DNA of 40,572 nucleotides. Source: Escherichia coli (GTDB taxonomy: Bacteria > Pseudomonadota > Gammaproteobacteria > Enterobacterales > Enterobacteriaceae). The position numbers and the translations under genes are program-made. The notes beneath the pieces are model-generated. The model was not told the origin of the DNA and searched no databases. It worked only from the letters and a program-made list of their open reading frames with translations. The stretch lies in the NCBI RefSeq assembly GCF_003334355.1, contig NZ_QOWP01000032.1; one strand, given 5' to 3'. Positions 28,716 through 29,218 of the stretch are shown here, piece after piece (within the stretch, counting starts at the first letter, position 1; each line of letters starts with the position of its first letter).

Positions 28716-28967
28716 ATGCGTACAATTAGCTACAGCGAAGCGCGTCAGAATTTGTCGGCAACAATGATGAAAGCCGTTGAAGATCATGCCCCGATCCTTA
28801 TTACTCGTCAGAATGGAGAGGCTTGTGTTCTGATGTCACTCGAAGAATACAACTCGCTGGAAGAGACGGCTTATCTACTGCGTTCCCCCGCTAACGCCCG
28901 GAGATTGATGGACTCAATCGATAGCCTGAAATCAGGCAAAGGAACAGAAAAGGACATTATTGAGTGA
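28716..28967 (+). CDS. yefM: Antitoxin YefM (Phd/YefM family)
   Basis: Translation from ATG 28716 ([39 protein letters not shown]...), 83 aa. Confidence 0.92.
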
Positions 28968-29218
28968 AACTAATCTGGTCTGAGGAATCATGGGATGATT
29001 ATCTGTACTGGCAGGAAACAGATAAGCGAATTGTTAAAAAGATCAATGAACTTATCAAAGATACCCGCAGAACGCCATTTGAAGGTAAGGGGAAGCCAGA
29101 ACCCCTGAAACATAATTTGTCAGGTTTCTGGTCCCGACGCATTACAGAGGAGCACCGTCTAGTATACGCGGTTACCGACGATTCACTGCTCATTGCAGCA
29201 TGTCGTTATCATTATTGA
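28964..29218 (+). CDS. yoeB: Toxin YoeB (RelE/ParE-superfamily mRNA interferase)
   Basis: 84-aa [36 protein letters not shown]..., start overlapping the yefM stop. Confidence 0.92.

Follow-up and report, generated by a model that had tools for sequence, protein, structure and literature searches.

A canonical, intact yefM-yoeB toxin-antitoxin operon beside the his operon of an Escherichia coli chromosome

Analysis of a stretch of DNA of 40,572 nucleotides, referred to here as the window, indicated that the locus at positions 28716 to 29218 is almost certainly the canonical chromosomal type II toxin-antitoxin operon yefM-yoeB of E. coli, complete and apparently functional. No sequence features arguing against this reading were found in the window. 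This is one of the best-characterised toxin-antitoxin systems; it was present at its standard chromosomal position and displayed no sequence feature departing from the K-12 reference. The yefM-yoeB pair of the window proved to be already known in all respects examined, its presence/absence polymorphism included, and the locus serves as a confirmed landmark for an E. coli window extending from colanic acid/galF to yeeZ and onward. The features on which this assignment was based and those of the surrounding DNA are listed in Table 1.

Table 1. Positions of the yefM-yoeB module, its control elements and neighbouring features in the window
Feature	Position	Strand	Basis or remark
JUMPstart element, galF to first O-antigen gene	3528..3566		Rfam RF01707, 53.6 bits; expected for an O-antigen operon leader
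O-antigen cluster	3606..15754		33% GC
gnd	about 15933..17339		
Extra NAD-dependent epimerase gene between ugd and wzzB	about 18763..19767	-	strand opposite to ugd and wzzB
wzzB	about 20165..21148		
hisIE through hisG	21204..28237	-	55% GC
his leader/attenuator	28284..28407	-	Rfam RF00514, 131.6 bits
hisL leader peptide gene	28383..28433	-	PSS-12 annotation
Whole yefM-yoeB cassette, ~651 bp	28573..29223 (boundaries about +/-5 bp)	+	alignment with cassette-less genomes
-35 box TAGTTA of the yefM-yoeB promoter (pyy)	28662..28667	+	sequence; hexamer and 17-bp spacer per PMC7730913
L (long) operator palindrome TCATTGTACAATGA, primary YefM binding site	28679..28692	.	exact match to footprinted sequence, PMC1802561
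-10 box TACAAT	28685..28690	+	sequence; PMC7730913
S (short) operator core TGTACA, spanning the transcription start	28695..28700	.	sequence; 12-bp spacing rule, PMC1802561
Transcription start, G	28696	+	G as +1 per PMC7730913
Shine-Dalgarno sequence GAGGAG, 6 nt before the yefM ATG	28704..28709	+	sequence; 6-bp window, PMC1802561
yefM, antitoxin, 83 aa	28716..28967	+	ATG at 28716, stop TGA 28965..28967
yoeB, ribosome-dependent mRNA endoribonuclease toxin, 84 aa	28964..29218	+	GTG start, stop TGA 29216..29218
yeeZ, SDR-family oxidoreductase	29301..30125	+	82 bp downstream of yoeB
Enterobacterial sRNA STnc240 match	31146..31220		Rfam RF02074, 68.2 bits; just downstream of yeeY, upstream of yoeI/plaP

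Reading frames, protein identity and natural alleles

The original prediction had assigned two full-length genes with a stop/start overlap to this locus, and the list of open reading frames and the sequence itself reproduced its limits exactly. The two genes form one operon on the plus strand, with the antitoxin gene yefM directly ahead of the toxin gene yoeB, and the stop codon of yefM and the GTG start codon of yoeB (28964..28966) were found to share the predicted overlap, which comprised 4 nt (GTGA, 28964..28967). A longer reading of yefM, a 92-aa open reading frame from an ATG at 28689, was also present in the list. Primer extension in K-12 had put the first codon of yefM at +21, counted from the transcription start, and another ATG of the K-12 gene, at -7 to -5, was named as unused (PMC1802561). 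With +1 set at the G at 28696, these published ATG codons fall exactly at 28716 and 28689, which indicated that the yefM start at 28716 is correct.

Alignment of the translated products with K-12 YefM and YoeB, the check that had been proposed for the pair, detected 100% identity of both proteins to the crystallised complex (PDB 2A6Q) and to those of K-12 strain MC4100. Identity extended from end to end of the 83- and 84-aa products, to chain A for YefM (E = 1.8e-49) and to chain E for YoeB (E = 1.2e-56), and such full-length matches are far beyond chance. YoeB was also identical to the YoeB chains of 2A6R, 2A6S, 4V8X, 6OTR, 6OXA and 6OXI. Searches with family models placed YefM in the Phd/YefM family (Pfam PF02604, E = 7e-28; NCBIfam equivalog NF008499, 186.6 bits against a cut-off of 121) and YoeB in the YoeB/Txe family, with a match to the full-length Pfam model PF06769 (E = 3.1e-43) and to the Txe/YoeB equivalog TIGR02116 (132.8 bits against a cut-off of 51.8).

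YoeB of the window shares its entire sequence with the crystallised protein and therefore retains all residues with an assigned catalytic or substrate-binding role, and inspection of the catalytic and mRNA-contact positions, which had likewise been proposed as a check, found Glu46, Arg59, Glu63, Arg65, His83 and Tyr84 unaltered. Glu46 is the general base and His83 the general acid of the reaction, Arg65 and Tyr84 contribute to transition-state stabilisation and to orientation, and Arg65, which contacts the scissile phosphate, is described as needed for activity (PMC3814384, PMC6821326). Inactivating substitutions at the catalytic positions of YoeB had been set beforehand as the observation that would speak against an intact module, and none were present in the yoeB gene of the window. 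The finding of R65L and W10* alleles in other natural E. coli indicated that this examination of the catalytic positions was a real test.

The extent of natural variation was apparent from comparisons of individual genomes with the window. K-12 MC4100 and an O111:H8 strain differed from it at 5 and 8 DNA positions, respectively, and all of these differences were synonymous, indicating purifying selection on the proteins. Eight differences were detected in APEC 16-1068, which specified T61I in YoeB, and six in isolate AHB4, in which YoeB carried W10*. The allele of the O25b:H4-ST131 strain 5506 (NZ_CP103508.1) had 11 differences, which included T19A and R65L in YoeB and G74D in YefM. A split yoeB gene was detected in NZ_LR883000.

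Some of these alleles bear on whether the pair of the window could itself be a decayed, nonfunctional remnant, or pseudo-toxin-antitoxin locus. Decayed versions do occur elsewhere (W10* in AHB4, R65L in the ST131 genome and the split yoeB of NZ_LR883000), but both proteins of the window were full length and identical to active crystallised proteins, and the core promoter and operator were intact. The probability of decay is thus negligible, this reading being excluded by sequence identity.

The R65L allele lies outside the window and is noted here as a lead only. The substitution results from a CGT-to-CTT change at the position equivalent to 29157 of the window, and an exact 37-mer containing the CTT codon was detected in 417 of 5426 complete E. 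coli genomes, in all of which the gene was annotated as an intact yoeB. Among the papers searched for YoeB together with R65L, R65A or ST131, none contained R65L. The YoeB R65L allele of ST131 may be a naturally disabled toxin.

Promoter, operator and predicted mode of action

The -35 and -10 boxes, the L and S palindromes, the transcription start, the Shine-Dalgarno sequence and the yefM ATG were all found at their published relative positions (PMC1802561, PMC7730913). The -10 box sits within the L palindrome and is separated from the -35 box by 17 bp. An autoregulatory operator was present in the form of the L and S palindromes with TGTACA cores, lying 12 bp apart from centre to centre and overlapping the -10 box and the transcription start. 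Only six other TGTACA sites, all scattered, were detected in the 40.6-kb window.

A promoter and terminator scan of positions 28380..29320 did not pick up the experimentally mapped yefM-yoeB promoter, because its -35 box matches at 3 of 6 positions only; this is a limit of the scan and no evidence against the promoter. One promoter-like and one terminator-like site were reported on the minus strand inside yoeB, at or below the frequency expected from shuffled sequence, and were treated as chance occurrences. On the plus strand, the same scan detected no terminator-like site between yoeB and yeeZ. RNA folding of 29205..29305 indicated an AT-rich hairpin, ATTCATTC-ATA-GAATGAAT, at about 29224..29242 (z = -2.06). 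This hairpin was not a terminator of the canonical GC-rich type with a T-run, and it was located in flanking DNA shared with cassette-less genomes. The gap between yoeB and yeeZ has no clear terminator before yeeZ, and nothing further is concluded from it.

Since the mechanism was demonstrated experimentally with identical proteins and an identical core promoter and operator, we infer that the module of this strain behaves as does that of K-12. A weak sigma-70 promoter (TAGTTA, 17 bp, TACAAT, with a start at the G at 28696) would drive a bicistronic mRNA, and the position of the yoeB GTG inside the yefM stop (GTGA) would favour coupled translation and keep the antitoxin in excess. A YefM dimer would bind one YoeB and block the YoeB active site. 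YefM and, more avidly, the YefM-YoeB complex would bind the L palindrome and then the S palindrome (PMC1802561, PMC7730913), and occupancy of both would mask the -10 box together with the point at which transcription begins, leading to autorepression of the operon. Loss of YefM, which would be Lon dependent and occur on Lon overproduction and at 42 C, would free YoeB (PMC7167474). Free YoeB would then be expected to enter the ribosomal A site and cut mRNA after the second codon position by Glu46/His83 acid-base catalysis (PMC3814384), with Arg65 and Tyr84 stabilising the transition state during cleavage. Growth arrest by the toxin, neutralisation by the antitoxin and Lon lability of the antitoxin have been summarised for the identical K-12 proteins (PMC7167474).

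Genomic setting and presence or absence of the cassette

Over 31.7 kb (positions 8440..40144), the window differed from E. coli strain PSS-12 by 5 SNPs (99.98% identity); the window is E. coli DNA with PSS-12 as its closest relative. The gene map was taken from the annotation of this near-identical strain and gave the order galF, JUMPstart, O-antigen cluster, gnd, ugd, epimerase gene, wzzB, his operon, yefM-yoeB, yeeZ, yeeY, yoeI and plaP. The window (40140..40572) lacked an IS3-family element which PSS-12 carries at the matching point (L001, about 31706..33036), indicating that the window derives from a close relative of PSS-12 and not from the same assembly. The sequence from ~40490 to the end of the window matched (97.6%) the upstream junction of this element in PSS-12 (L001, 31699..31782) and reads like what we take to be an IS2 terminus.

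Two further differences from PSS-12 were observed in the first gene of the O-antigen cluster, a GT4 glycosyltransferase gene at 3661..4778. In the window this gene was split into open reading frames 3661..4317 and 4308..4778 because an A-run was 1 bp shorter (A6, at about 4298..4303, versus A7 in PSS-12), whereas in PSS-12 it was intact and specified 390 aa; the split reflects either a genuine frameshift or an error in sequencing the homopolymer. The same gene contained an (AAAGAC)n hexanucleotide repeat (4219..4254) encoding (Lys-Asp)n, which had 6 copies in the window versus 17 in PSS-12, a change that was in frame.

The placement of the module beside the his operon was borne out, with hisL, the His leader and hisG on one side and yeeZ on the other. 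The module adjoins the his promoter, and the hisL gene and the his attenuator (28284..28433, minus strand) were transcribed divergently from yefM. The accompanying suggestion that the module lies at the boundary with the variable O-antigen region proved loose: ~11.4 kb containing the his operon, wzzB, the epimerase gene, ugd and gnd separates it from the O-antigen genes, with yefM lying ~7.5 kb from wzzB and ~11.4 kb from gnd. These two are the closest genes associated with the O antigen, and the complete his operon intervenes between them and yefM. The feature that truly varies at this site is the toxin-antitoxin cassette itself, which some genomes have and others lack.

Alignment with the cassette-less genomes of O157:H7 F8492 and PSJ-14 indicated that the left flank is identical as far as about 28572-28576 and that identity resumes at about 29224. 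Besides the two genes, the intervening cassette included 143 bp of upstream DNA with the promoter and a further 5 bp past the yoeB stop codon. Its GC content, 43.6%, was lower than the 51-55% of the flanking core genes and intermediate between those of the O-antigen cluster (33%) and the his operon (55%). A near-palindrome, GCTAAGAGGACTGTCCTCTAAGC (28564..28586), straddles the left boundary, its left half belonging to the conserved flank and its right half to the cassette.

The 503-bp coding segment was present in 4217 of 5426 complete E. coli genomes, where it was always chromosomal and always annotated as yefM/yoeB, and the flanks were present in 5417 genomes. In ~1200 complete genomes, O157:H7 included, the cassette was absent and the flanks were joined by other sequence, which in the two aligned genomes (O157:H7 F8492 and PSJ-14) was ~209 bp of REP-like sequence (…GCCGGATGCGGCGTGAATGCCTTATC…). 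In one genome, strain EC0026B, an IS421 element occupied the same hisL-yeeZ gap. The cassette of ~651 bp appears to be an accessory element inserted between hisL and yeeZ and not a component of the core genome. The polymorphism was dropped as a novelty, having been published: Iguchi et al. (2011) described Sakai as lacking yoeB and yefM between yeeZ and hisL and as having REP sequences there (PMC3158064), and a 2023 survey reported the absence of YoeB from ST11 (PMC10790755).

The exact YoeB protein was extremely common in public assemblies, and the hisG-hisL / yefM-yoeB / yeeZ-yeeY context surrounded it in 10 of the 10 contigs inspected. No plasmid copy of the cassette was detected among the 5426 complete E. 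coli genomes. In view of this and of the single context in the contigs, the notion of a currently mobile cassette was discarded.

Biological role and comparison with known systems

The identity of the locus leaves its biological role as a separate matter. The physiological benefit of yefM-yoeB is disputed, with no fitness effect reported at 42 C (PMC7167474), and so is a role in persistence (PMC5120126). One live view, to which we give appreciable weight while leaning against it, is that the intact cassette is essentially a selfish addiction element, which persists at this site because its loss kills or arrests the cell (a post-segregational effect), and that it brings no stress-response benefit to its host. 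The presence/absence polymorphism, the sharp boundaries and the GC content below that of the flanks (43.6% versus 51-55%) are consistent with such an element, as are the roughly 1200 genomes that manage without the cassette and the natural alleles with a nonsense mutation or a catalytic-site change; reviews furthermore hold that chromosomal toxin-antitoxin systems are horizontally acquired and often have no measurable fitness effect (PMC7167474, PMC5120126). Set against this, only synonymous differences separate the alleles of the distant K-12, O111:H8 and present strains, which points to purifying selection, although addiction alone could give the same pattern, and the lack of a plasmid copy among the 5426 genomes provided no sign of current mobility.

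A function of the module as an anti-phage abortive-infection system appeared very unlikely. Some type II toxin-antitoxin systems, namely, mazEF, rnlAB and lsoAB, do restrict phage (PMC7167474), but neither YefM nor YoeB matched any PADLOC defence-system model at E <= 0.01, the neighbours were histidine biosynthesis genes, yeeZ and yeeY with no defence genes nearby, and no report of phage restriction by E. coli YefM-YoeB was found in the literature searched.

A more speculative proposal, which we put forward as a long shot, is that the cassette could constitute a local addiction barrier. The hisL-yeeZ gap would have two alternative fillings, the toxin-antitoxin pair or REP-like sequence, and would lie within a stretch that is swapped along with the O-antigen cluster. 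Replacement of a cassette-bearing his-side flank by a donor tract lacking the cassette would result in loss of YefM, and YoeB would arrest the recombinant. If true, such a barrier would bias where the recombination tracts of O-antigen switching end. The same proposal, held at the same low level of confidence, extends to yeeZ: because no terminator was detected between yoeB and yeeZ, YefM-YoeB autorepression may set the expression of yeeZ, in strains bearing the cassette only.

The closest known system was that of K-12 (b2017/b4539; PDB 2A6Q, 2A6R, 2A6S, 4V8X and 6OXA), which has identical proteins, arranges its genes in the same order with the same 4-nt overlap, has the same -35 and -10 boxes and the same L and S operator elements, and is likewise flanked by hisL and yeeZ. 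The window differed from it by five synonymous coding substitutions and by a few upstream substitutions, such as C for T at 28675 in the -35/-10 spacer, none of which fell in the boxes or palindromes. Axe-Txe of the Enterococcus faecium plasmid pRUM is a homologous pair with the same -10 box, TACAAT, and paired L and S palindromes (PMC7730913), but it is plasmid borne, its -35 box (TTGCTT) is stronger, and its operator is placed differently relative to the promoter, with the result that repression is less complete. The arrangement in the window matched that of the E. coli pyy promoter and not that of the pat promoter of Axe-Txe.

More distant members of the same families were M. tuberculosis RelJK (Rv3357/3358, 3OEI), S. 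aureus YefM-YoeB (6L8E) and A. tumefaciens YoeB (6N90), with E values of 1e-13 to 1e-32. These were clearly divergent, whereas the proteins of the window are the E. coli orthologues themselves. The toxins of RelBE, YafQ-DinJ and HigBA, which are ribosome-dependent mRNases of the RelE fold, share with YoeB the fold and the cleavage of mRNA in the A site, and YoeB of the window matched the RelE/StbE and YafQ models weakly, at scores under the cut-offs of those models. YoeB is distinguished from these systems by a Glu/His acid-base pair like that of RNase T1/Sa (PMC3814384) and by an antitoxin partner of the Phd/YefM family.
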